Source: a virus. From it: a DNA stretch of 64,000 bases. Position numbers and translations under genes: made by a program. The notes beneath the pieces are model-generated. The model saw only the letters and a program-made list of their open reading frames with translations. It was not told the DNA's origin and did not search any database. This document shows, piece after piece, positions 5,310 through 64,000 of this stretch; the first letter of the stretch is position 1, and each line of letters opens with the position of its first letter. Location of the stretch: the IMG/VR virus record IMGVR_UViG_3300012985_000010, positions 1 through 64,000 of that record, one strand, 5' to 3'.

Positions 5310-5989
5310 TAGTATTTCTCCGTATTGTGAATAGTAGTTGGGCTGTCCCAATCGTAATTTACTGGCAGGTAGTTCTGGTGCGAGGTTGCAAATGCGTCGA
5401 TCCACACATTGTTTGCGAGGTCCATGACGAAAATGTCAATCGGTCCAGAGATACCGTACTTCTCAGTGTACCCTAGAATCTTTCTTGCGCCTTCTGGCGT
5501 ATACATGATAGTCACGAAGCAGTAGGACTGGTAGTTTCTAACCACGACATTGTTTTGCTCGATACCGGCGTACGCCATTGGTGAGTTAGGGAACTGACAA
5601 TCGTGTGGCGTGTAAAGGGAAACTAGGTCCCATTCCTCAGGCAGGTACTTCATAATCAGTTCCATGTTCTCATCGAACTGTGGACGGATGATTGCGTCGT
5701 CCTCGAACACGATGACCGGCTCTGACTGCTCAGAGATAGCACGGTAGGCTCGGAGGTTGGACAACCAAACGCCCAACTCACCCTTCTTCATCATGTAAGC
5801 CCAATTGTAGAACAGGGGGTGCCCGTTCTCGAAAACCTCAGGGAATTCTGCACGGGCCTCTAAGACCTGTGCCTCGTCGCTACCATTAACGCAGTCAATG
5901 ACGATCTCGTTGTCTGGACCTAGGGTATTCCTAATCAGGTCCTTCTGCCAGGCACGGTCATCATTGATGCTGATGATTATGTACTTCAC
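5309..5989 (-). CDS. Glycosyltransferase family 25-like
   Basis: 'KYIIISI..DR', 'KGELGVWLS', 'IVFEDDA', 'TPEGARK', 'PID' GT25 motifs. Confidence 0.85.
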   Translation of the reverse strand: MKYIIISINDDRAWQKDLIRNTLGPDNEIVIDCVNGSDEAQVLEARAEFPEVFENGHPLFYNWAYMMKKGELGVWLSNLRAYRAISEQSEPVIVFEDDAIIRPQFDENMELIMKYLPEEWDLVSLYTPHDCQFPNSPMAYAGIEQNNVVVRNYQSYCFVTIMYTPEGARKILGYTEKYGISGPIDIFVMDLANNVWIDAFATSHQNYLPVNYDWDSPTTIHNTEKY

Positions 5990-6129
5990 TTTCGGATCAG
6001 TCCAAACTTTTCAAGCCAGATGTAGACCTGGCGCTGAGAGCACTTCGCCTCCTTGGCGATCTCAGCAGGAGACTTCTTCTTCTTTAGGTACCGGTCTCGC
6101 ATCCAGGCCTCGTTCTTTTCTAGGCTCAC
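5986..6129 (-). CDS. Small HTH DNA-binding protein, 47 aa (MSLEKNEAWMRDRYLKKKKSPAEIAKEAKCSQRQVYIWLEKFGL..), not in the ORF track
   Basis: Translated by hand; GTGA overlaps with both neighbours; HTH pattern 'SPAEIAKEAKCSQRQVYIWL'. Confidence 0.75.
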   Translation of the reverse strand: MSLEKNEAWMRDRYLKKKKSPAEIAKEAKCSQRQVYIWLEKFGLIRK

Positions 6130-20524: not shown

Positions 20525-23500
20525 CTATGAATTGACGATGGCTTCGAGTTCAGCAAGACGTCTGGTCAGGTCCTGAATCTTGGCGATGGCTGGTACCACC
20601 AGGCGCTTATAGTCAATAGTCTGGATAGTACCGTCTGGATCGCGCTGGACGAACAGGTCCCAATTAGGGTCGTCTGCCATTTCCTCAGCGATGAATCCAG
20701 CCTGGTCCGGTGCTTCGTCGCCAAACTCTTCGACATCTGCAATTGCCTTGTACACAACTGGACGTAGGGCGAGGATGTCGTAGTCATCGTATGTCTCAGT
20801 CCTGACATCTGTCTTGTACCTAATAGACGAGGAAGGGTATCCAATAAGACCGGAAGAGTTTAGTACCAAATCCCTAGTAGATGCAAGCGGTGTTGAGTAT
20901 GGGCCACGGGCGGTGAGGCCACAGTCACCGGCAAAGGTTGCCATCTGATCACCAGACAGGTTTCCAGGCGTCAACTGAAGCGTAGCCCTGACCGAGTACG
21001 AGGTGTACGAAGGCGAGGTGATCAGCGTTGAAATGGTGTCAGAGTAAAGCAGTCCAGGTGAAAGACCGGCTGGCGGTGATCCATTGTTAGGGTAAAGGTA
21101 GACGACGCCTGTACTAGAGATAAGAATTCCACGGGTGGTAGAGCCAGGGTCAGAGTCCAGGCTGAACGATCCAGTAATTGTCAGGGCACCGCTAGATGCT
21201 GACAGGTTGAACGACTGTACTCCGCTGGAGTTGTACCCAAAAAGACCAGAGTTACTTAGCAGGATTCTGGCGGCAGAGGTTGCGCTCTGAAGCGTAAAGG
21301 CACCAGCGTTTGTCAGGGAGACGGTCTTTGTTCCACCAGAGTTGTATGCTGCCAACTCGGAGTTTGTCAACTGTACGCGTGCGCCCGAGGCTGCTGACTG
21401 AATGGTGAACGAGTTACGCGCAATTAGAGCATTGTACTCAGCATTTCCATCTGAGGTTACCTGCCAACCGCTTGTTCCGGTTACGAAGTTGGCAGACTGC
21501 ATAAGGGATGCAGCGCCATCTGTTGGGTTGCCAGCACCGGCACCGACAACAGCATTTCCACGGATCAGTACGTTTGCAAAGTTTGCGTATCCATTCGTGT
21601 TGATACTCCAAACCGGCTGTACGACACCGTTGATACTCACGGTTGCGGTCGAGGTGATTTGTCCAGTACGAATCGAGGCACCATCAATTACCGTATTATC
21701 AGGGTACTTGTATGTGGTTGCCGAGCCGCCCTGCTCGAACTGTAGGGCAGACATTTCATGGTACCCCTGGCTGAAACTGTGGAATCCAAGAACGATTGCG
21801 GTTGTCGTGGCACTAGTGGTGAACGTCCAGGTTTTTCTGGTCTGCGCCGAACTGACCGTCTGCGATCCAGAGTCGACAATAGTACCGTTCTGATCCTTGT
21901 ACCTTACAAAGAAGGTACCTGAACCGTACATTGTTGGGTAGAAACTGAACGTGTAGGTGGTACTTGGTGTTACAAAGATGTTGTAGTCAGTCGAACTCTT
22001 ACCTAGCCAGAATCCGTTGTTTGTATTGGCCGGGGTTGCATTGTTTGCATTCCAAACGAGGACAGACTTGTTGTCGATGCTAGAAGCCAGGTAGTTAGAC
22101 CCGATACCGGAACCGACATAGACTCCATCGGTAAGCCAGGTGATGGCATTAGGTACGGTCGAGTCATATAGGTATGGACCCCAATCGAACATGGAGTAAA
22201 CGGCTGGGATGTAGTTGGTGACACCAGTAGTGAACGACTGTGCTGAAATACTACCCTGGTTAATCTCTAGACCGTCCCTGCCAAGCCTCCATCCAGAGAC
22301 ACCGGGCGTATAGTTACCAGACTGAATAAATCCGCGCTGGCCCTGAACAACAATGGTTCCAGGGTTGTTTAGCAGGTCTCCCACCCTCAGGTCGTTTGTG
22401 AATACAGTTCCTGAGGTGATCTTATTGGCATTTAGGTTCGTAATCTTTGCATCTGTAATGGTTGCGTACGCAATATTAGCAGCACTGATAAGTGGAACCG
22501 ACTGCCCAGATGATGTTGCAGAGAGAACGGAGCCACGGTTTCCAGCCTTGTCTACGCCAACAACAGCAGCGTACCAAGTCTGCGCTGTGTTGGTGGAGGT
22601 TCCACCATCTGTTGAAGGGATTGAGAACAGCCCGCTTGGGGCTGGACCGGCCCCCATGATTCCATTTGGCTTTGTGACTCCAAGGGTTGCTGGTACCGGC
22701 GTGGTCGTGGAAAGGTAGACCTCGTAATATGAGAGGTCTGGATTCATAGGCGTTGTATTGTCAGACTGCAGGCCGCTGTGCGAGACCTGAATCATGGTCT
22801 GGTTAGATGAAACCGTAGGTGCCGCTGGCGTGGAAGGTCCAATAAGGTCCTTAGCGGTAAGCAGAGGATATGTGCTAGCACTTACCCATGCAGACATGTT
22901 ATTGAACTTGTCATACGAGGCAGTCTGGACATAGTAGTTTGTATTTGCAATAAGGTCGGCAAGGGTCACGGTCTGACTCGTTGCGACCGTTGCGCTGCCG
23001 GGTCCAGACGGTGTAGAGCCGTCCATTAGAGGAACGTCGACTATTGTCCAGGGTCCAGTGCTTCCAGTCGAGAACCTCAACTTATGACCAGAAAGGTCCG
23101 TGTCACCAGTTTTTGATGTCCAGGTTGCCGTTAGGTTGGCCGTGTACCCCGTTGGGTCGCCAAGGTTGGATGTTGTTGTTACCGTCGCTGCATTAGGCGT
23201 TGCTGGCGGTGTAACGTCGACGAGACCTGGGTTTGTAGGCGTCATGGCAGCAGTTACCGAGTACGGTCCAGGCTGGTTGAACTTGTCGTAGAATGCAACC
23301 TTAAAGTACATAACAGAAGCATATGAAAGCGTGACGTACGTCCAACTGTTTACGTCACCAGAGAAAATACGACTGGCACCAGTGGTGTTTGCAGCGTTGG
23401 TTGTACCGACCCATACCTCAGCGTACTGGTAGTCATCGAATGCAGCCTTGTCCCACGCGAGGCTGATCTTGTCTGGACCGGCTGTACCGACAACGTTTGT

Positions 23501-56958: not shown

Positions 56959-57187
56959 AATCATCAGTTGTGGTGATCTCAACGACAATTTGATGTACAG
57001 AATCATCGTTGTAGAAGATGATCTTGTTGTTGATTGGTGGTACTCACCGAAAATCGACTTTAACATCCCCGAAGGACGTGTACGCTCCGATGTCGTCAGT
57101 CACGTCATACTCAAAGACTACCCATACTGGCTCCCACCCGATCCCCACGTCATCATCAAAGGAACATACCAAGATCATCTTTCATAA
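56939..57187 (+). CDS. Hypothetical protein
   Basis: ORF ending the ThyX operon. Confidence 0.45.
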   Translation: MSVKSRRIISCGDLNDNLMYRIIVVEDDLVVDWWYSPKIDFNIPEGRVRSDVVSHVILKDYPYWLPPDPHVIIKGTYQDHLS

Positions 57188-57300
57188 TTGACATTTTGCA
57201 AACTTTCGGTTAGATGTATGATCCAGCCATCCCTGCGAATTGTTGATCTTGATAGTGCGCCCATATTCTTTACCTTCCCGTTACCTAATCTGCCCGATTC

Positions 57301-57322
57301 TGTCAGTGTCCGATGATAGTCT
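57301..57322 (+). promoter_or_regulatory. PafBC/RecA-NDp-type promoter
   Basis: TGTCAG-TGTCCGATGA-TAGTCT matches TGTCRG-N10-TANNNT. Confidence 0.6.
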
Positions 57323-57357
57323 GACGGAGTCGGAAACACAGAGCGAGAGGAAACGAA

Positions 57358-57576
57358 ATGGTCAACATCGGAGAGCGGGTCACCGTTCACACGTTCGCAT
57401 GGCAGGGTCGAGAGGGTACTATCCTCGAAACCTTCCCGTCCGTCCCCTGCCCGTGGATGCCTAGCGTGTCCACCGTGGCTACCGTGCGCGTTCGCATTGA
57501 CGGACGCATGACCTACCGTGGCCGTGAGGATGACGTTATCGCACACGTCACTCTCGACTCTGTGAAGGGGATCTAA
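57358..57576 (+). CDS. Small hypothetical protein (SH3-like)
   Basis: GAGG RBS; first gene of the early-type array. Confidence 0.65.
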   Translation: MVNIGERVTVHTFAWQGREGTILETFPSVPCPWMPSVSTVATVRVRIDGRMTYRGREDDVIAHVTLDSVKGI

Positions 57577-57869
57577 TGTTCATCCTCACCGATACCTACG
57601 CTGCCCACAATTGGGAGCCTGAGATTGTCTACACGCTCCCCTGTAGGGGTCACGAATGCGGAACCCCTGTCCTAGTCATGGATGATGACTCCGATATCTG
57701 CCCCGACTGTGACGGGTGGGAGTCGGACGCTATGGCGGCAGGGTACGCTGCCTATGCCAACATGAAAGCCATGCGCGAGGATGACCGCTGCCCCGTATGC
57801 GGTGCCTACGGGATGATGAACCAGAACATGCGTTGCATGACCCTTGACTGTGTCATGGGTGACGCGTGA
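57576..57869 (+). CDS. Cys-rich hypothetical protein
   Basis: TAATG coupling; several CxxC motifs. Confidence 0.65.
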   Translation: MFILTDTYAAHNWEPEIVYTLPCRGHECGTPVLVMDDDSDICPDCDGWESDAMAAGYAAYANMKAMREDDRCPVCGAYGMMNQNMRCMTLDCVMGDA

Positions 57870-58087
57870 TTACCCTTCCGACCTCACCCGCCGCATGGGT
57901 GAGGGTAGGGGATAGGGTATTGCTGCCTAAGGCTACCCGCTATGTTCGCATTGTGAATGTCGAATATGCGGTTAGTGACATTCGGGATATCCGCGTGACA
58001 TATGCGGATATCAACACAGGAAAGGGTATTCGCACCCGGTCCATTCGCCGTAATGCGCGTGTCATTCTCTACCCTGAGGGGATCTAA
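57866..58087 (+). CDS. Small hypothetical protein
   Basis: GTGA coupling. Confidence 0.6.
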   Translation: MITLPTSPAAWVRVGDRVLLPKATRYVRIVNVEYAVSDIRDIRVTYADINTGKGIRTRSIRRNARVILYPEGI

Positions 58088-58179
58088 TGCGAATCACCTT
58101 TCGCGGATATGCGGTTATCGCATTCATCGGTTTCGCTATCGGATATCTCATTCCGATAACCTATTGGATCGGAGGGTAG
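58087..58179 (+). CDS. 30-aa single-TM peptide (MRITFRGYAVIAFIGFAIGYLIPITYWIGG), not in the ORF track
   Basis: TAATG coupling; hydrophobic. Confidence 0.55.
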   Translation: MRITFRGYAVIAFIGFAIGYLIPITYWIGG

Positions 58180-58190
58180 TTGCATAGGGG

Positions 58191-58240
58191 AAGGTTGCAC
58201 CTGCAAGTGTTTCCGACAGAACCTTTGCAGGTGCAACCTT
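58191..58240. repeat. 16-bp perfect inverted repeat (terminator-like)
   Basis: AAGGTTGCACCTGCAA (58191-58206) / TTGCAGGTGCAACCTT (58225-58240). Confidence 0.8.
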
Positions 58241-58386
58241 TGCCCGTGCAAGTAGTTGTGTCGCAAGCGACCCAAGACGTTTATGTTACGACAAGGGTTA
58301 AGTTTCCTGGGACTAGCGAGGCGCTACGTTCCCTTATATTATGATCGCCCCTTGATTCGTCAGGGTCTACATGCTAGGATGGGTAG

Positions 58387-58872
58387 ATGAGAAACACCAT
58401 TATCTTCGATATGGACGGTACCCTGTGCGACGTACAGGCAATCCGTCATTATGTGCGTGGGGACAATCAGAACTTCGACGCATTCCACAAGGCCTCCCTC
58501 TGGTGCCCACCCAACTACGATGTGCTCGAAGCAGCACAGGGTCATGCCTCTGACGGATACCACATCACCATCGTCACCGCAAGGGATGAGAAGTACCGTG
58601 ATGTCACAGAGGATTGGCTTGACAAGTACAAGGTCCCCTATGACGTTATGTACATGAGGCCCTGGGGAGACCGGCGCAAGGATCGAGACGTAAAGATCGA
58701 GATTCTCGAAGAGATCAGAGCCTCGAACCTCAACCCCGTACTTGCCTACGATGACAACCCCCATGTGATCGCCATGTGGAAAGAGCATGGAATCGACGTG
58801 GAGGTTGTTCCTGGTTGGGACGCGACACCTCTCGAAGAACTCGCCGGTATCTTGACACCCGACCACGTCTAG
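58387..58872 (+). CDS. HAD-family phosphatase (polynucleotide kinase/phosphatase 3'-phosphatase-like domain), leaderless
   Basis: 'IFDMDGTL', 'IVTAR', 'MRP.GD.R.D...K', 'YDD'; TTGATT-N17-TAGGAT ends 6 nt before the ATG. Confidence 0.85.
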   Translation: MRNTIIFDMDGTLCDVQAIRHYVRGDNQNFDAFHKASLWCPPNYDVLEAAQGHASDGYHITIVTARDEKYRDVTEDWLDKYKVPYDVMYMRPWGDRRKDRDVKIEILEEIRASNLNPVLAYDDNPHVIAMWKEHGIDVEVVPGWDATPLEELAGILTPDHV

Positions 58873-58886
58873 GGTAGGTTCGAGTC

Positions 58887-59102
58887 ATGCAGAACACACC
58901 GCTTGCCCGCATCGGCAACTACTCCATCTTCGAGACCGCCAATCCCAACATCTTCGAGGCCGTGAGTGACTACGGTCCCGTTACCAGGATCGCGGCTGTC
59001 AGGGAAGGTCACTTCGGGTACAGGTGGATCATCACTCGAACCCTTCGTCCCAACCCGGACAAGTTCCTGAACCTGTTCGACCTCATCCAGACTCTCCCTT
59101 AG
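58887..59102 (+). CDS. Hypothetical protein
   Basis: 71-aa ORF ending just before a cassette. Confidence 0.55.
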   Translation: MQNTPLARIGNYSIFETANPNIFEAVSDYGPVTRIAAVREGHFGYRWIITRTLRPNPDKFLNLFDLIQTLP

Positions 59103-59203
59103 AAAGGGGCGGGGCGCGCTCTTGAACCTCATTACGACCGCGCCGAAGTTTTGTCAGAGTCGTGTGGTAGAGTTCGAGCATCACCTCAACCAAGGAGAGC
59201 GCC

Positions 59204-59353
59204 ATGTGTGAAGACTACCCCTGCTGCGGCCACACCCCGTCTGACCCCTGCACGCGCGAGTGGTACGACGAGCCCGACGCTTTCGACCCCCGCAAGAACC
59301 CCCACGCGTTCTGTGACCACGCCAACGGTGACTACGCCTGCGACGACTACTGA
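59204..59353 (+). CDS. 49-aa Cys/His/Asp-rich protein (MCEDYPCCGHTPSDPCTREWYDEPDAFDPRKNPHAFCDHANGDYACDDY), not in the ORF track
   Basis: AAGGAG RBS; own promoter TGTCAG-N10-TAGAGT (59152-59173). Confidence 0.75.
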   Translation: MCEDYPCCGHTPSDPCTREWYDEPDAFDPRKNPHAFCDHANGDYACDDY

Positions 59354-59484
59354 GAGGCTAGCCCTTCGGGGCGGGGCGCGGCGTTTCCGGCGATTACGAA
59401 TGACGGCGAATTTCCCCGGCGTTTCTGTTGACACGGGACGGCGATTCTGTGTTAGACTCTACCTACCCAACCAGGAGGCACATC

Positions 59485-59739
59485 ATGAGCAACGTCCGCG
59501 TCATCCCCGCCCACGTCGACACTCCCCCGGTCGATGCTGAGTCCGCTGAGTTCTCCCGCTTCGTGCCGGAGCACCTGCTGGGTGACTTCGAGGTCGACGT
59601 TCTGCAGGGCGAGGCCATCCCCACGATCAACGACACCATCGACTTCTGGGCTGAAATGGCAACCTGCGAGCACGGCCTGTCGCGCGAACTCTGCGACGGC
59701 CCCATGCACTACCCGGCAGACAACCCCTACGACTTCTGA
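59485..59739 (+). CDS. Small acidic protein with C-terminal CEHGLS..LC.GP.HYP motif
   Basis: AGGAGG RBS before MSNVRV. Confidence 0.75.
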   Translation: MSNVRVIPAHVDTPPVDAESAEFSRFVPEHLLGDFEVDVLQGEAIPTINDTIDFWAEMATCEHGLSRELCDGPMHYPADNPYDF

Positions 59740-59865
59740 GAAACCTCGCTCCTGCCCTTGACAAAGGGCAGGGTGCGCGGGGCGCGGTCGGGCGTGTCAT
59801 TACGAAGCCTGTTTGATTTTGTCGGTGCCGTGTGTTACTGTTGGCTCAACCAACCAGGAGGAAAC

Positions 59866-60102
59866 ATGAACGACTGCATCGAGCACACCATCCCCGCTGA
59901 CTGCGAGGGCGAGGTCATGTTCTACCAGGCCCTTTCCGGCTCGGGTGAGTCCTACCCCCGCTGCGAGAAGGGTTACGCCGAGTACGTCGAGCGCGTGCAG
60001 CCCCAGATGGACTCGATCCGTGAGCGGTACCCCGACTCCTCCACCCCGCCGTCCTGGTTCGACCCCACCTACGCGGGCGAGCGATGGGACGATGACTACT
60101 GA
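59866..60102 (+). CDS. Small acidic protein (..PSWFDPTYAGERWDDDY)
   Basis: AGGAGG RBS; promoter TTGATT-N17-TACTGT overlapping TGTCGG-N10-TACTGT. Confidence 0.75.
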   Translation: MNDCIEHTIPADCEGEVMFYQALSGSGESYPRCEKGYAEYVERVQPQMDSIRERYPDSSTPPSWFDPTYAGERWDDDY

Positions 60103-60239
60103 GCACTCGCCTTCGGGCGGGGCGACCGTTACCTTTCTGTTACGAAATGAGTCTGATTTCGTGGGGAAACTGTCAGACCCCTACGCTAGAATCTGGATAC
60201 AGGCAAGAGGGAGAACGGTTCTCCCAGGAAAGGCAAGTC

Positions 60240-60560
60240 ATGATCATCAAGTCCGTTAGCCAGTGGGACGTTATCTCCCTCCCTTCGTTCGACCCGTCCG
60301 GTCGTTCTGACTTCCAGGTGGTTGAGATTACCACTGACGCCAACGGTGAGTACGTTCACCTTAAGGCTGTCTCTCCCGATGGTCACTACGTCTCGAAGCA
60401 GGTCGGTGTTCGCACGATGGGTGACACCCTTCGTAACGCTCGTCCTGCCGAGTGCGTGGAGTGCCGTACCAACGTGTATGTGCCTCACAACTCTTGCCTC
60501 TACGGCGGAAACCGTACGGGTCACTCAAAGACTCACTGTACCGCGAATGCGTGTTACTAG
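60240..60560 (+). CDS. Hypothetical protein with Cys/His-rich C-terminus
   Basis: AGGAAAGG RBS; promoter TGTCAG-N10-TAGAAT (60171-60192). Confidence 0.7.
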   Translation: MIIKSVSQWDVISLPSFDPSGRSDFQVVEITTDANGEYVHLKAVSPDGHYVSKQVGVRTMGDTLRNARPAECVECRTNVYVPHNSCLYGGNRTGHSKTHCTANACY

Positions 60561-60664
60561 ACACGCCCGAGCGCGGGGCGCTCGTTACCTGTTTGTTACG
60601 AAAGACGTTTGATTTCGTGGGTGATACCTGATACGGTGTACCTACCAACGACAAGGAGAGTCAA

Positions 60665-60853
60665 GTGTTCCAGATCAAGCCCGTTTCGCCTCCGGCCCCC
60701 GAGTGCTTCGTTCCGAAGCAGTTTGAGACCGAGAGTGAGGTGCTGTCCACTCTGATCGTCAACGGTTGGAGCGAGATTCACCACCCGTCGGGCACCGTCT
60801 GGCGTCACGACGTTTCCGGTCGCATCGTTCGCATCGTGGAGGTTGACGCGTGA
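60665..60853 (+). CDS. Small hypothetical protein
   Basis: AAGGAG RBS; TTGATT-N17-TACGGT promoter (60609-60637). Confidence 0.65.
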   Translation: MFQIKPVSPPAPECFVPKQFETESEVLSTLIVNGWSEIHHPSGTVWRHDVSGRIVRIVEVDA

Positions 60854-61239
60854 TCAACAACGTGGAGAATTCGATCCTGGTCTGTCGCATCCTGGCAGAC
60901 AACGGCCTCGGCGGGCGTTCCTTGGAGCGTGCGGCAACTTCGATCATGGCCCTCGGCGCAAAGGACATGTCCAATGTCCCGCAGGCTAGCGGCTCCCCCC
61001 TTGCCGATTGGGAGAAGGAGTTGCTGGACCCGCAGTACCGGGTCAAGGAGTGGTGTATCCGTCACCTGGACGAGTACCGCACCGAGGACGGTACCTCGTA
61101 CCGTAAGATCATGATGATCAAGGACGTGAAGGCTGCGTTTGGTCTCTCGCTTAAGGAGGCGAAGGACCGTGTGGACGAGTGCGTGACCAATGCGGACCTC
61201 GCCCAACTGCGTGAGCGCCTGACCGGCAACTCGTACTAG
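60850..61239 (+). CDS. Protein with C-terminal ribosomal L7/L12 CTD-like domain
   Basis: 'KIMMIKDVKAAFGLSLKEAKDRVD' resembles bL12 'KI.VIK.VR...GLGLKEAK.LVE'. Confidence 0.65.
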   Translation: MINNVENSILVCRILADNGLGGRSLERAATSIMALGAKDMSNVPQASGSPLADWEKELLDPQYRVKEWCIRHLDEYRTEDGTSYRKIMMIKDVKAAFGLSLKEAKDRVDECVTNADLAQLRERLTGNSY

Positions 61240-61382
61240 GCGATTTCAGCCCGCCCCAAGCCCTTGACAAAAGGGCTTGGAGGCGCGGGGCGCACCTTTA
61301 CCTTCTCTTTACGAACACCTGTTGACTTCCCTGGTCTCAGCGTGTATGGTTTACCTATCAGCCCCGATGAAGGAGTGGTCAC

Positions 61383-61502
61383 ATGAACACCAGCGAGAAG
61401 ATTGCCGCCGCCGTGGCGAACCAGAAGGCCGTCAAGGCCCAGCGCGCACGGGAAGCAATGGCTCGCGTGGCTGCTGCTTCACCGGGGCTGCCCAAGTCCT
61501 GA
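61383..61502 (+). CDS. 39-aa Ala-rich basic peptide (MNTSEKIAAAVANQKAVKAQRAREAMARVAAASPGLPKS), not in the ORF track
   Basis: AAGGAG RBS; TTGACT-N17-TATGGT promoter (61322-61350). Confidence 0.6.
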   Translation: MNTSEKIAAAVANQKAVKAQRAREAMARVAAASPGLPKS

Positions 61503-61800
61503 GGCGCGCGGGGGATGTGGACCCCTGCGCTTGGAACGAGGCTTGGCCCACCTCAACTCAGAAACGGGCCCACAACTTCACAGCGCGTGTCTCCTAGGTA
61601 GGGACTAGACGAATCGGAACACACTTACCCGAGGATGGAAGCGGTCGTTTCGTAGCACACGAGGAGTAGTGTCCCGCCCCTGCTACCATATCCCACCGTA
61701 ATCGAACACCTACCTAGGCGAGACGTTCTGTGGATGGCGCATAAGTGAATATGGTCATGAGTAGCCCCTAATGGCATAAGCAACCATTAGGGGCATATTC
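61503..61800 (+). ncRNA. Candidate ~300-nt structured non-coding RNA
   Basis: Several nested stems including CCTAGGTAGG/CCTACCTAGG; no RBS-led ORF; ends in an 11-bp hairpin. Confidence 0.45.
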
Positions 61801-61856
61801 ATGCGGGGCGCGCAGCGCCAACAGTTTACGACCGGCGCTCGATTTCCCTGGACCTA

Positions 61857-61885
61857 GGGGGCCAGCCCATGATAGGCTGGCCCCC
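61857..61885. terminator. Hairpin terminating the inverted gene
   Basis: GGGGGCCAGCC-CATGATA-GGCTGGCCCCC. Confidence 0.7.
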
Positions 61886-61891
61886 TTGTGG

Positions 61892-62116
61892 TCAGGACTC
61901 GGTGGGAGCCTTGGTCAGATCGACCTTCGGAGTCTCCACCTTCGGAGCGGCGACGGGGTTGTCAGCCTCGAACTTCACGCCCTTGGCGCGAGCCTCGGCC
62001 ACGAGAGCACGGCCCTCGTTCGAGAAACGACCCTTGACGGAACCCGGCTTCGCCAGGCCCTTCTCGATCAGCAGAGCGCGGGGGCTCTCGTACTTGGTGC
62101 GGAACTTGCGGGCCAT
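61892..62116 (-). CDS. Small basic protein, possible Lsr2/AT-hook-like DNA binder
   Basis: AAGGGAGG RBS; 'R..L..KGL....KGRFS' resembles the Lsr2 C-terminal RGR motif. Confidence 0.6.
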   Translation of the reverse strand: MARKFRTKYESPRALLIEKGLAKPGSVKGRFSNEGRALVAEARAKGVKFEADNPVAAPKVETPKVDLTKAPTES

Positions 62117-62357
62117 GACAGGCCCTCCCTTCACTTTCGGTGAGGGCGTGTCCCTCACTCACAGGACTAACTATACACGGATACACCGACGATTGGAACC
62201 CTTTGTCCAACCTTTCTTGGTAAAGGAATCTTTGCCCCCGCCCTATTGACAACGATCATCAGGGCGGGCCGCGCTCGGGCGTGTCGTTACGAAGCCGTGA
62301 CAATTTCCCCGGTGATACGGTTGCGCGGTGTCGGTCCCCTAGTGTATAGTTTGAGCC

Positions 62358-63104
62358 ATGACAAACACCCTCGCGCTTCGACTGTCCACCGACCGTAAGA
62401 CGACCCCTTCCGCAAACAAGGCGGGAACGCAGGCAAACGTGAGCAACGCTTTCGGCTTGCTTTCCGGGCGGGAGTTTTCGTGCCCCGGTCAGACTGCCGC
62501 GTGCGAGGCTGTTTGCTACGCTGGCAAATTGGAGAACATCTTTAAGGGATTCCGCGCGGTTATGGAGTCGAATTGGAACGCCGTTAAGGATGCGTCCGCT
62601 AATGATATCGCGCGGTCGCTTAACCACCTTATCGGTGAATTCCGTATCGCTGCTAATAAGCGTGGGGCCTCGCTCGATTTCCGCATTCACCATGACGGGG
62701 ATTTCTTTTCTCGCGCGTACGCTCGCGCATGGTCTGCGGTTATCCTCTCCAACCCTGACGTGAATTTCTGGGCATACACTCGGAGTTTCACGCCGGGAAA
62801 CAATGTCGTCGATATCCTCGCCGGTATTCCGAATCTCACCCTTTACCTTTCGGTGGACGAGGGGAATGCGGAATGGGTGGACGAGATTATCAGTGAGCAC
62901 CCGGATATCCTTATCGCAACGCTTACCGATACTGCCGCCGAAGGTGCGGCAATGATGGGCGAATGGCGAAACCGTCCGGGTGCGGCGTGTCCCGAGGTTA
63001 TGGGCCGAATTCCTCTCATTACCGTAAACGGTGGCGCGTGCATTTCCTGCGGACTTTGCCCTAATGGCAAGGCCGATATCCGATTCGCAGCAAAGGGGAA
63101 GTGA
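62358..63104 (+). CDS. Gp88-like Cys-cluster (radical-SAM-like) phage protein, leaderless
   Basis: 'SCPGQT.AC..VCYA', 'FRIHHDGDF', 'FWAYTR', 'NL.LYLS.D', 'C.SC.LC'; ATG 7 nt after TATAGT. Confidence 0.75.
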   Translation: MTNTLALRLSTDRKTTPSANKAGTQANVSNAFGLLSGREFSCPGQTAACEAVCYAGKLENIFKGFRAVMESNWNAVKDASANDIARSLNHLIGEFRIAANKRGASLDFRIHHDGDFFSRAYARAWSAVILSNPDVNFWAYTRSFTPGNNVVDILAGIPNLTLYLSVDEGNAEWVDEIISEHPDILIATLTDTAAEGAAMMGEWRNRPGAACPEVMGRIPLITVNGGACISCGLCPNGKADIRFAAKGK

Positions 63105-63105
63105 C

Positions 63106-63279
63106 TTGTATATCATCAAGACTCGTAACCGTAAGACCGGCCGCGCGGATATCAAGGTGCATTCCGGGGATTATTCCTCGGCTGTTACCCGTACCAACCG
63201 GCTCAAGAATGCGAACACGGTTAGCCTTCACGCTAACACCGGTCGCTGTCTGCTCCGGTCTCCCGGTTCGGTTATCTAA
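63106..63279 (+). CDS. Small basic hypothetical protein (TTG start)
   Basis: Directly after the gp88-like stop; ends before a hairpin and cassette. Confidence 0.5.
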   Translation: MYIIKTRNRKTGRADIKVHSGDYSSAVTRTNRLKNANTVSLHANTGRCLLRSPGSVI

Positions 63280-63381
63280 CCCGTGCGCGGGCGTGGCAAC
63301 ACGCCCGAGCGCGGGGCGCGCGTTACCCTTTCGTTACGAAAGGTGCTTGATTTCGTGGGGCTCTGCTGATAGGTTCTCTGC

Positions 63382-63843
63382 ATGGAAATCTTCCGCATCG
63401 AACACGGCCAATACCTCCACGGTCCCTACAACACGGCGCATTGGGACAGCAAGTCCATTTGCGACTGTGGCTACTTCCCCGCGATGGAGAAGTGGAACGA
63501 GGACATGAACCGTGAGTTCCCCTGGCACGATGACGACTGTTTCTTGATGCAGTTGCGTTCGGTCACTGAGGCAATGCTCAGCGAGCACTGCGATATCGCA
63601 CACCCGCCGCCGCAGCGTGACAACCTGTTCGATATCGCACCTGACGAGGTGTGCGCCTTCCTCGACCTCGCAGACCTCCACGAGTGGTTCGCAGGCTTTC
63701 AGGACACATTGGCCGAGGTTGGGTACCGCATTTCCGTCTTTGAGGTTGACGAGTGTGATATCCGAGTCGGTGACACTCAGATTGTTTTCCGCAACGGTGA
63801 GAGGTTGACAACCCTCCCCCTGACTGGTAAGGTCGCAGCATGA
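63382..63843 (+). CDS. Hypothetical protein, leaderless
   Basis: TTGATT-N17-TAGGTT ends 6 nt before the ATG; 'FRIEH...GPY...HP.P..D....CAF.....L..WF' pattern. Confidence 0.7.
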   Translation: MEIFRIEHGQYLHGPYNTAHWDSKSICDCGYFPAMEKWNEDMNREFPWHDDDCFLMQLRSVTEAMLSEHCDIAHPPPQRDNLFDIAPDEVCAFLDLADLHEWFAGFQDTLAEVGYRISVFEVDECDIRVGDTQIVFRNGERLTTLPLTGKVAA

Positions 63844-63998
63844 CGAAGAACAAGCGCCGAGCGCGCCCGCAGAAGCAGAAGGACAAGGTACAGCGTGTGC
63901 AGGACCTCCGCAGGGGTTCGACCGCTCAGCCTCACGCCCTTGCCACCGACTACAAGCGTAGCCCGAAGCACAAGGGACGCGGGTGGGAGGATGCGTAA
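63840..63998 (+). CDS. 52-aa very basic protein (MTKNKRRARPQKQKDKVQRVQDLRRGSTAQPHALATDYKRSPKHKGRGWEDA), not in the ORF track
   Basis: ATGA coupling to the upstream gene. Confidence 0.6.
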   Translation: MTKNKRRARPQKQKDKVQRVQDLRRGSTAQPHALATDYKRSPKHKGRGWEDA

Positions 63999-64000
63999 GT

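Follow-up and report, generated by a model that had tools for sequence, protein, structure and literature searches.

A putative second promoter class with a PafBC-type −26 element in an uncultured actinophage lineage

We analyzed a virus record from IMG/VR (IMGVR_UViG_3300012985_000010, hereafter G000; 72,394 bp, CheckV completeness about 58%), in whose right arm intergenic elements of the form TGTCRG-N10-TANNNT stand before small genes; the window is bases 1–64000 of this record. Minus-strand genes fill bases 138–53352, and their identified products are a portal protein, a protease, the major capsid protein, a class II ribonucleotide reductase and a glycosyltransferase. Genes from 53.8 kb onward lie on the plus strand and encode ThyX, a HAD/PNKP-type phosphatase, many small open reading frames (ORFs), a GP88-family protein and a RIIA-like protein. 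Because of the RIIA-like gene, GP88, the small ORFs and the many promoters in series, we infer, from gene content only, that this region is early. Streptomyces cluster BE phages (Stanwilliamsviridae, about 130 kb) have capsid proteins 55–60% identical to that of G000, and Rhodococcus phages have ones 45–47% identical to it; the nearest cultured capsids are found in these two groups. A megablast search of 57–64 kb against cultured phages found no near-identical relative, and the sequencing runs that contain positions 57000–64000 are three soil DNA metagenomes only, two of which may be its source, with no RNA run listed. Its capsid kinship, a small gene like those of Mycobacterium phages and the soil-only sequencing runs identify G000 as an uncultured soil actinophage; WhiB and tRNA genes, sought as host clues, were found neither in the window nor in the 72-kb record.

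The right arm of G000 carries the following TGTCRG-type sites, where distances are in nucleotides (nt) and scores, where given, in bits.

57301–57322, plus strand: −26-type promoter TGTCAGTGTCCGATGATAGTCT, 13.5 bits, its end 35 nt 5′ of ATG 57358
59152–59173, plus strand: −26-type promoter TGTCAGAGTCGTGTGGTAGAGT, 17.5 bits, with TGG before the −10 and no −35, its end 30 nt 5′ of ATG 59204
59813–59841, plus strand: hybrid promoter, a TTGATT −35, then 1 nt, then TGTCGGTGCCGTGTGTTACTGT, its end 24 nt 5′ of ATG 59866
60171–60192, plus strand: −26-type promoter TGTCAGACCCCTACGCTAGAAT, 25.1 bits, no −35, its end 47 nt 5′ of ATG 60240
62170–62191, minus strand: divergent −26-type promoter cGTCGGTGTATCCGTGTATAGT (equal to CGTCGGTGTATCCGTGTATAGT), one mismatch with GTC kept, its end 53 nt 5′ of the ATG of an Lsr2-like gene
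62329–62350, plus strand: −26-type promoter TGTCGGTCCCCTAGTGTATAGT, its end 7 nt 5′ of the leaderless ATG 62358 of the GP88-family gene
64836, plus strand, outside the window: −26-type promoter, 39 nt before the RIIA-like gene at 64897–66891

A pattern scan recovers the five exact plus-strand matches (57301, 59152, 59820, 60171 and 62329) where an initial annotation of the window had placed them, together with two further features that it had described, the one-mismatch minus-strand copy before the inverted gene (62191–62170) and the 7-nt distance from the 62329 site to ATG 62358. Scanning the whole record adds a sixth exact intergenic plus-strand site at 64836, beyond the window. The strict pattern has eight matches in the window against 0.81 ± 0.84 expected, and none of 100 shuffles reached eight. 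A position weight matrix (PWM), built from the sites of related phages only and applied with a cut-off of at least 12 bits, finds seven matches in the record and 0 or 1 in each of 20 block shuffles; six of the seven are the intergenic sites, all co-oriented with the genes. Three of the eight strict matches (20786 minus, 35615 plus and 52381 plus) sit within long ORFs, score below 12 bits on the PWM and look random. An account of the sites as chance matches in AT-poor intergenic DNA would fit these three, but it is refuted for the set by the shuffle and PWM controls and by the conservation in relatives described below, and we give it practically no weight. As judged from sequence, the six plus-strand sites and the divergent minus-strand site are real promoters of a second class.

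The architecture of these sites is highly regular. The −26 element retains GTC in all seven (six exact TGTCRG, one cGTCGG), the spacer to TANNNT is exactly 10 nt in every case, and start codons lie 7–53 nt downstream of every site. Four of the six plus-strand sites match TTGACA at no more than three of six positions at spacers of 16–19 nt, in line with the annotation's remark that most lack a good −35; a −35 of 4/6 quality occurs at 59820 (TTGATT, 17 nt) and at 64836 (TTGTAA, 18 nt). Its statement that the minus-strand promoters are free of the motif holds for the minus block from 1 to 53 kb, where the only matches are coding, at 20786 (exact) and 8063 (PWM). LexA boxes have four loose matches in the window against 2.9 expected, none of them at a promoter. 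Between 53.4 and 67 kb we inspected 13 plus-strand gaps between genes, each 40 nt or longer: six contain a TGTCRG-type promoter (57301, 59152, 59820, 60171, 62329 and 64836), six contain an ordinary TTGnnn-17/19-TAnnnT promoter alone (53764, 58352, 59428, 60609, 61322 and 63347) and one contains neither class. TGTCRG-type and ordinary TTGAYT-N17-TANNNT promoters alternate along the arm.

We now turn to the known regulatory element that these sites resemble. In the excerpted text of PMC8635444, the consensus of the actinobacterial DNA-damage activator PafBC is tGTCgg(N10)tA(N3)T, with its 5′ part at −23 to −28 and no −35 consensus; GTC is strictly conserved in the recA promoters of actinobacteria, the PafB helix-turn-helix reads the −26 element, PafC contacts sigma domain 4 (sigma adaptation) and the DNA-binding residues of PafBC are conserved across actinobacteria. 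According to the part of PMC11804915 that we draw on, PafBC joins RNA polymerase–SigA only on such promoters and only with single-stranded DNA (ssDNA), and it needs RNA polymerase in order to bind promoter DNA. The same element, known as the RecA-NDp motif, is shared by other Actinobacteria (PMC8223512) and has been reported before S. coelicolor recA and SCO6735 (PMC5087735). The sites of G000 match tGTCgg(N10)tA(N3)T exactly, this being the consensus of actinobacterial PafBC.

The pattern also precedes host repair genes in environmental DNA. We scanned metagenome contigs with TTGTCAGTGGC-N6-TANNNT, whose TTGTCAGTGGC core we take to be that of the recA literature, and obtained at least 120 loci, a non-random sample of which 33 listed loci have a guanine-plus-cytosine (GC) content of at least 0.6 and 87 a lower one. 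Among the 33, for which Pfam was run on 10 first downstream ORFs, RecA lies downstream of the motif in L249 and L260 (Pfam) and in L271, L330 and L348 (P-loop motif), while L318 is RecA-like and L253 UvrA-like by N-terminal sequence resemblance only. Pfam further places UvrA (L276), SbcD (L316), helicase domains (L320 and L328) and a regulator with HTH_11 and WYL domains (L279) downstream of the motif in the listed loci; other first downstream ORFs among them encode an aldehyde dehydrogenase and an MFS transporter, and many are unassigned. The motif also precedes recA in two contigs of GC 0.45–0.50 (L230 and L256), there with a LexA box right after the −10, and the L256 recA promoter is identical at 19 of 23 positions to G000 64835–64857, the promoter of the RIIA-like gene. 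The high-GC recA genes of L260 (778–3228) and L318, both behind the motif, contain an intein with a LAGLIDADG domain. Among the 87 listed loci of lower GC, 17 have a near-identical TTGTCAGTGGCTACTGATATAAT promoter directly before a gene family of about 90–100 residues that appears to be phage-borne; its core reads ..PPHLQRMVN.G..G.DI.HGELKNLML.. (for example in L234, L239, L248, L259, L266, L278 and L301).

Related phages conserve the promoter class. Two related contigs were found through a GP88 search. G001 carries a cluster of six co-oriented sites; in G002 (115 kb, complete) four sites, exact and co-oriented, lie within 1.6 kb and a fifth about 1.9 kb further. The joint consensus of the two contigs is TGTCRGACCCCyrTGcTAnnnT, and several of the sites have an ATG 6 nt after. 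The core of the GP88 promoter is kept in G000, L001 and L003 (TGTCGT in L003), with diverging flanks. By eye, a string ATGTCCG(N)TTT recurs about 30–45 nt upstream of several TGTCRG sites in L001 and L002, and not in G000. An IMG/VR scan with the extended consensus gave at least 120 loci, most of them of 35–42% GC; the loose pattern occurs 768 times among the loci listed, and the 97 listed loci with at least three co-oriented sites underlie the counts that follow. The sequence logo of their 706 sites reads WWW-TGTCAG-(T/A)(C/G)(C/G)...TGnTAnAAT with no −35 signal, its positions set by the search pattern being uninformative by construction; 183 of the sites are search seeds and 523 are not. On the gene strand the 10-nt spacer occurs 707 times, while each of the remaining spacers between N6 and N14 occurs 1–39 times. 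In 51 of the 706 sites an ATG follows the −10 at a distance of 6 or 7 nt, compared with 0–5 at each neighboring offset, a peak that fits leaderless starts. Among the 523 non-seed matches the commonest extension after TGTCRG is TGG (195, TGTCAGTGG), followed by TCC (62), ACC (62) and TGC (61). The TGTCAGTGG extension is the form seen before host repair genes, and many phage sites favor ACC or TCC after TGTCAG.

The conserved spacing bears on a simpler explanation, by which these are plain extended −10 housekeeping promoters whose TGTCRG is read by RNA polymerase or by a host factor other than PafBC, with no link to DNA damage. A TG at −15/−14, immediately 5′ of the −10 as TGn, occurs at four of the six G000 sites and at 281 of the 523 non-seed sites (T in 68% and G in 79% of all 706), and such an extension could make a −35 dispensable; the two G000 sites with a 4/6 −35 also suit this explanation, as does a locus, L002, in which the GP88 gene has a plain TTGACT-17-TACCCT (about 5950–6000) instead of the motif at the orthologous position. 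However, it leaves unexplained why an invariant hexamer stands at a fixed 10 nt from the −10, and why the same hexamer, an element assigned to PafB in the excerpt of PMC8635444, precedes host repair genes. We consider it quite improbable.

The distribution of the class among large genomes is narrow. In five large low-GC records we found a capsid homologue (44–58% identity) together with WhiB in all five, and these large relatives have 9–15 sites in a small-gene module of about 10 kb, whose edge carries one or two divergent ones. Among 50 further motif-bearing records a capsid homologue is present in 26, including all six that are at least 90% complete. The complete genomes with many sites are therefore all of one capsid lineage (5/5 and 6/6 records at least 90% complete), in a sample partly chosen with an ACCC seed and to that extent biased; G002, which carries sites, was left out of the capsid search. 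As every motif-rich record of at least 90% completeness that was checked has the capsid homologue, we assign the promoter class to one uncultured lineage of 100–116-kb actinophages. The hosts of this lineage, to go by WhiB in five of five large relatives and by nearest cultured capsids from Streptomyces and Rhodococcus phages, are actinobacteria.

The motif also occurs in a second family of viral contigs, of GC 0.65–0.69, with conserved TGTCAGTGGC and TGTCAGACC promoters, the latter preceding leaderless ORFs of 59–62 residues. A tblastx comparison (1e-5, windows of at most 15 kb) found no protein shared between these high-GC contigs and the loci of the lineage, its single match being L027, a single-site locus. 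The high-GC viral contigs thus appear to carry the motif independently of the lineage.

From these comparisons, the explanation that we favor on balance is that the phage uses the host's PafBC, an ssDNA sensor, at these promoters. It is the most economical one because it needs no unseen phage protein, and it would account for the element, spacing and extension shared with recA-type promoters. In such a mechanism, the −10 of the housekeeping sigma factor (TANNNT, often with TGn) would be used, and TGTCRG at −28 to −23 would replace the −35 as the element read by the host PafB helix-turn-helix, with PafBC slotting between promoter DNA and sigma domain 4. Single-stranded DNA that arises during infection by end processing, replication or nuclease attack would activate PafBC, and the TGTCRG promoters would then fire alongside the ordinary TTGAYT-N17-TANNNT promoters of the same module. 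The initial annotation had already read the sites as PafBC-type. As to the type of site, that reading has gained from the consensus match, the position before genes, the mostly missing −35 and the conservation in related phages with strict 10-nt spacing, and also from environmental contigs, presumably actinobacterial, in which genes for RecA, UvrA, SbcD, helicases and a WYL regulator follow the same pattern; PafBC binding to the sites, ssDNA as the trigger and the timing of expression are what we infer beyond it.

Several observations weigh against the use of host PafBC. The dependence of PafBC on ssDNA is awkward for the very first genes expressed. The canonical promoter at L002 GP88 implies that the two promoter classes need not differ in timing. 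The excerpted text of Stratton et al. 2022 (PMC9380542) states that an initial search found the M. smegmatis PafBC motif not conserved in S. venezuelae. Three cultured Streptomyces BE genomes have the motif at control level only (0, 1 and 2 matches), so the class is not general in this virus family. Finally, its restriction to one capsid lineage leaves room for a lineage-specific phage factor.

Such a factor would be a phage-encoded adaptor that reads the TGTCRG box at −26 and connects it with domain 4 of the host sigma factor, with no detectable similarity to PafBC, MotA or AsiA; in that case the early class proper would be the TTGAYT promoters, and the TGTCRG promoters would serve as a middle class timed by the phage. 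T4 middle promoters have an A/T-rich triplet before the activator box. The architecture of our sites is similar, with a box for the −35, a good −10 and, in the logo, WWW before TGTCAG. An adaptor would also suit the interleaving of two promoter classes in G000, the single capsid lineage of the multi-site complete genomes, the missing motif in cultured BE relatives that infect PafBC-bearing Streptomyces, and the ACC and TCC spacer preferences, which go beyond the published host consensus. However, its copying of the host element, the exact 10-nt spacing and the TGG extension would be coincidence. The module of G005 (complete) opens with a divergent pair of TGTCAG promoters (the TGTCRG class being the only one scanned there), which would count against an adaptor unless an ordinary promoter expressed it first. 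The motif, including its ACC variant, is also conserved in the unrelated high-GC viral contigs.

Searches for the factor itself were negative. WYL (PF13280) and HTH_PafC (PF19187) have no match in G000, which is about 58% complete, or in 7–9 relatives, five of them at least 90% complete; Sigma70_r2 is absent from G000 and seven relatives with the same five; and MotCF and AsiA have no match at E ≤ 1 in eight records (G000 and seven relatives). The phage WYL protein outside the window that the initial annotation had offered as an alternative was accordingly not found in the rest of G000 or in the seven relatives. Considering both sides, we regard a phage-encoded adaptor as unlikely, if still the most serious competitor to host PafBC.

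Two gene families only are common to the modules of all six genomes compared, GP88 and a basic protein of about 50 residues that is usually encoded just upstream of GP88. GP88 was rejected as a candidate activator because its homologues are present in Streptomyces BE phages, as they are in Mycobacterium phages, and the motif is missing from the three BE genomes that were scanned. The basic protein, which has no match in the cultured-phage collection, counts in favor of an adaptor by its presence in all six modules, and we treat it as a weak candidate for the phage factor. In a specific version of the idea, the lineage would encode an unrecognizable sigma adaptor that has no WYL sensor domain and copies the −26 specificity of PafB, a proposal we hold to be rather doubtful. 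Such an adaptor would fire the phage's own 6–15 promoters constitutively, and would force on or titrate the host PafBC regulon. It could then amount to a new actinobacterial parallel to the sigma appropriation of T4, with the basic protein next to GP88 as one candidate, which is an equally tentative suggestion.

The genes behind the promoters, the ordinary promoters and a repeated intergenic cassette are laid out as follows.

57358–58179, plus strand: four small genes, the first with ATG 57358, behind the 57301 promoter
58352–58380, plus strand: ordinary promoter TTGATT-17-TAGGAT, its end 6 nt 5′ of the leaderless ATG 58387 (HAD/PNKP-type phosphatase)
59095–63386, plus strand: intergenic cassette of about 60 nt in nine copies, GCGGGGCGCG, 13–14 nt, TTACGA(A), 8–9 nt, (TT)GATTTC
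59204 (ATG), plus strand: Cys-rich ORF of 49 residues, behind the 59152 promoter
59428–59458, plus strand: ordinary promoter TTGACA-19-TAGACT, before the gene at 59485–59739
59866–60102, plus strand: gene of 78 residues, phrog_6230, behind the hybrid promoter
60240 (ATG), plus strand: ORF of 106 residues, behind the 60171 promoter
60609–60637, plus strand: ordinary promoter TTGATT-17-TACGGT, before the genes at 60665–61239
61322–61350, plus strand: ordinary promoter TTGACT-17-TATGGT, before the gene at 61383–61502
61892–62116, minus strand: gene of an Lsr2-like DNA-bridging protein, 74 residues, phrog_6269 (E 1.5e-08)
62358–63104, plus strand: GP88-family gene, PF17338 (E 2.3e-40), phrog_1392
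63347–63375, plus strand: ordinary promoter TTGATT-17-TAGGTT, its end 6 nt 5′ of the leaderless ATG 63382
63840–63998: gene of a very basic protein of 52 residues, conserved core RVxELRRSNAA...Y.RK.KH, weak PHROG match only
64897–66891 of the record (L128 897–2891), plus strand, outside the window: RIIA-like gene, phrog_612 (E 1e-92), weak HATPase_c match

Most of the small genes downstream of the promoters fall into no Pfam or PHROGs family, and the RIIA-like gene stands behind the best-scoring TGTCAG site (64836). The gene at 59866–60102 is 69–75% identical in DNA to genes of Mycobacterium phages (GuuelaD, Faith1 and DirkDirk), with weaker matches in Streptomyces and Arthrobacter phages; the likeness points to gene exchange across actinophage host genera. 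GC content climbs from about 0.51 to 0.57–0.59 near 58 kb, exactly at the start of the multi-promoter small-gene module. A generic sigma-70 scan showed no enrichment (eight matches against 6.2 expected) and recovered just one ordinary promoter, because it demands a stricter consensus than these −10 boxes show.

The cassette has the form GCGGGGCGCG...TTACGA...TTGATTTC, with GCGGG.CG, TTACGA and ..TT (GATTTC) as its invariant parts. Its TTGATT is the −35 of the ordinary promoters, and the −26-type promoters overlap the cassette or come after it. More degenerate copies occur at about 64.7 and at 67.8–69.1 kb of the record. The cassette could be a regulator-binding module plus a terminator remnant.

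A conserved unit recurs in the high-GC viral contigs, consisting of a TGTCAGACC promoter, the leaderless ORF of 59–62 residues and a second small ORF.

L151, 440–1040: high-GC unit
L213, 9030–9780: high-GC unit
L225, 2020–2650: high-GC unit
L227, 3920–4545: high-GC unit

A TTGTCAGTGGC promoter in this unit is directed back toward a shared hairpin, and in L213 a DUF6221 gene follows the back-reading promoter. The hairpin unit may yield a short antisense or small RNA; six high-GC loci gave no Rfam family, and L213 has no match among cultured phages.

The master activator of the DNA-damage response in actinobacteria is PafBC, and ssDNA turns it on. If the phage does use it, a widespread lineage, seen in soil and in low-GC environmental samples, would wire 6–15 promoters of its small-gene module to an ssDNA sensor. 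PafBC would then count among the host factors of phage development and might offer a way to phage resistance, and phage infection would be a natural trigger of the PafBC regulon. The sites would also offer hundreds of natural promoter variants (706 among the matches listed) for dissecting sigma adaptation.

A search at the level of titles and abstracts found no published report of phage promoters with the PafBC/RecA-NDp motif. Our sites share with PafBC/RecA-NDp promoters the 22-nt layout, with tGTCgg at −28 to −23, an invariant GTC, exactly 10 nt, TANNNT and no −35. In contrast to host PafBC promoters, they are located in a phage, with 6–7 per record (9–15 in relatives), and precede small genes without known function and Lsr2-like, GP88 and RIIA-like genes; they have no LexA box alongside, and unlike the published host consensus many favor ACC or TCC after TGTCAG. 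With Streptomyces BE phages, G000 has in common a capsid of 55–60% identity, GP88 homologues and a similar genome size, whereas the phages with the motif form a sister group that has no cultured members, and the three BE genomes stay at control level.

The sites resemble the middle promoters of phage T4 (MotA box and AsiA) in having an activator box for the −35 and a host-type −10, and in being interspersed with ordinary promoters in a small-gene module; the excerpt of PMC8635444 itself compares PafBC with T4 sigma appropriation. Unlike T4, the eight records have no MotA (MotCF) or AsiA homologue, and the box is the site of a host regulator, so the activator may be host-encoded. Under the use of host PafBC, the system would also resemble phages and prophages wired to the SOS response, in that gene expression would be coupled to a host DNA-damage or ssDNA signal. 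The nearest actinobacterial case that we found is that of LexA-controlled prophage genes in S. venezuelae, as described in the excerpted text of PMC9380542; the small-gene module of G000 looks like that of a lytic phage. SOS-wired systems, which use LexA operators or the cleavage of a repressor stimulated by RecA, act by de-repression through LexA or CI, whereas the proposed phage system would act by positive control through a WYL activator.

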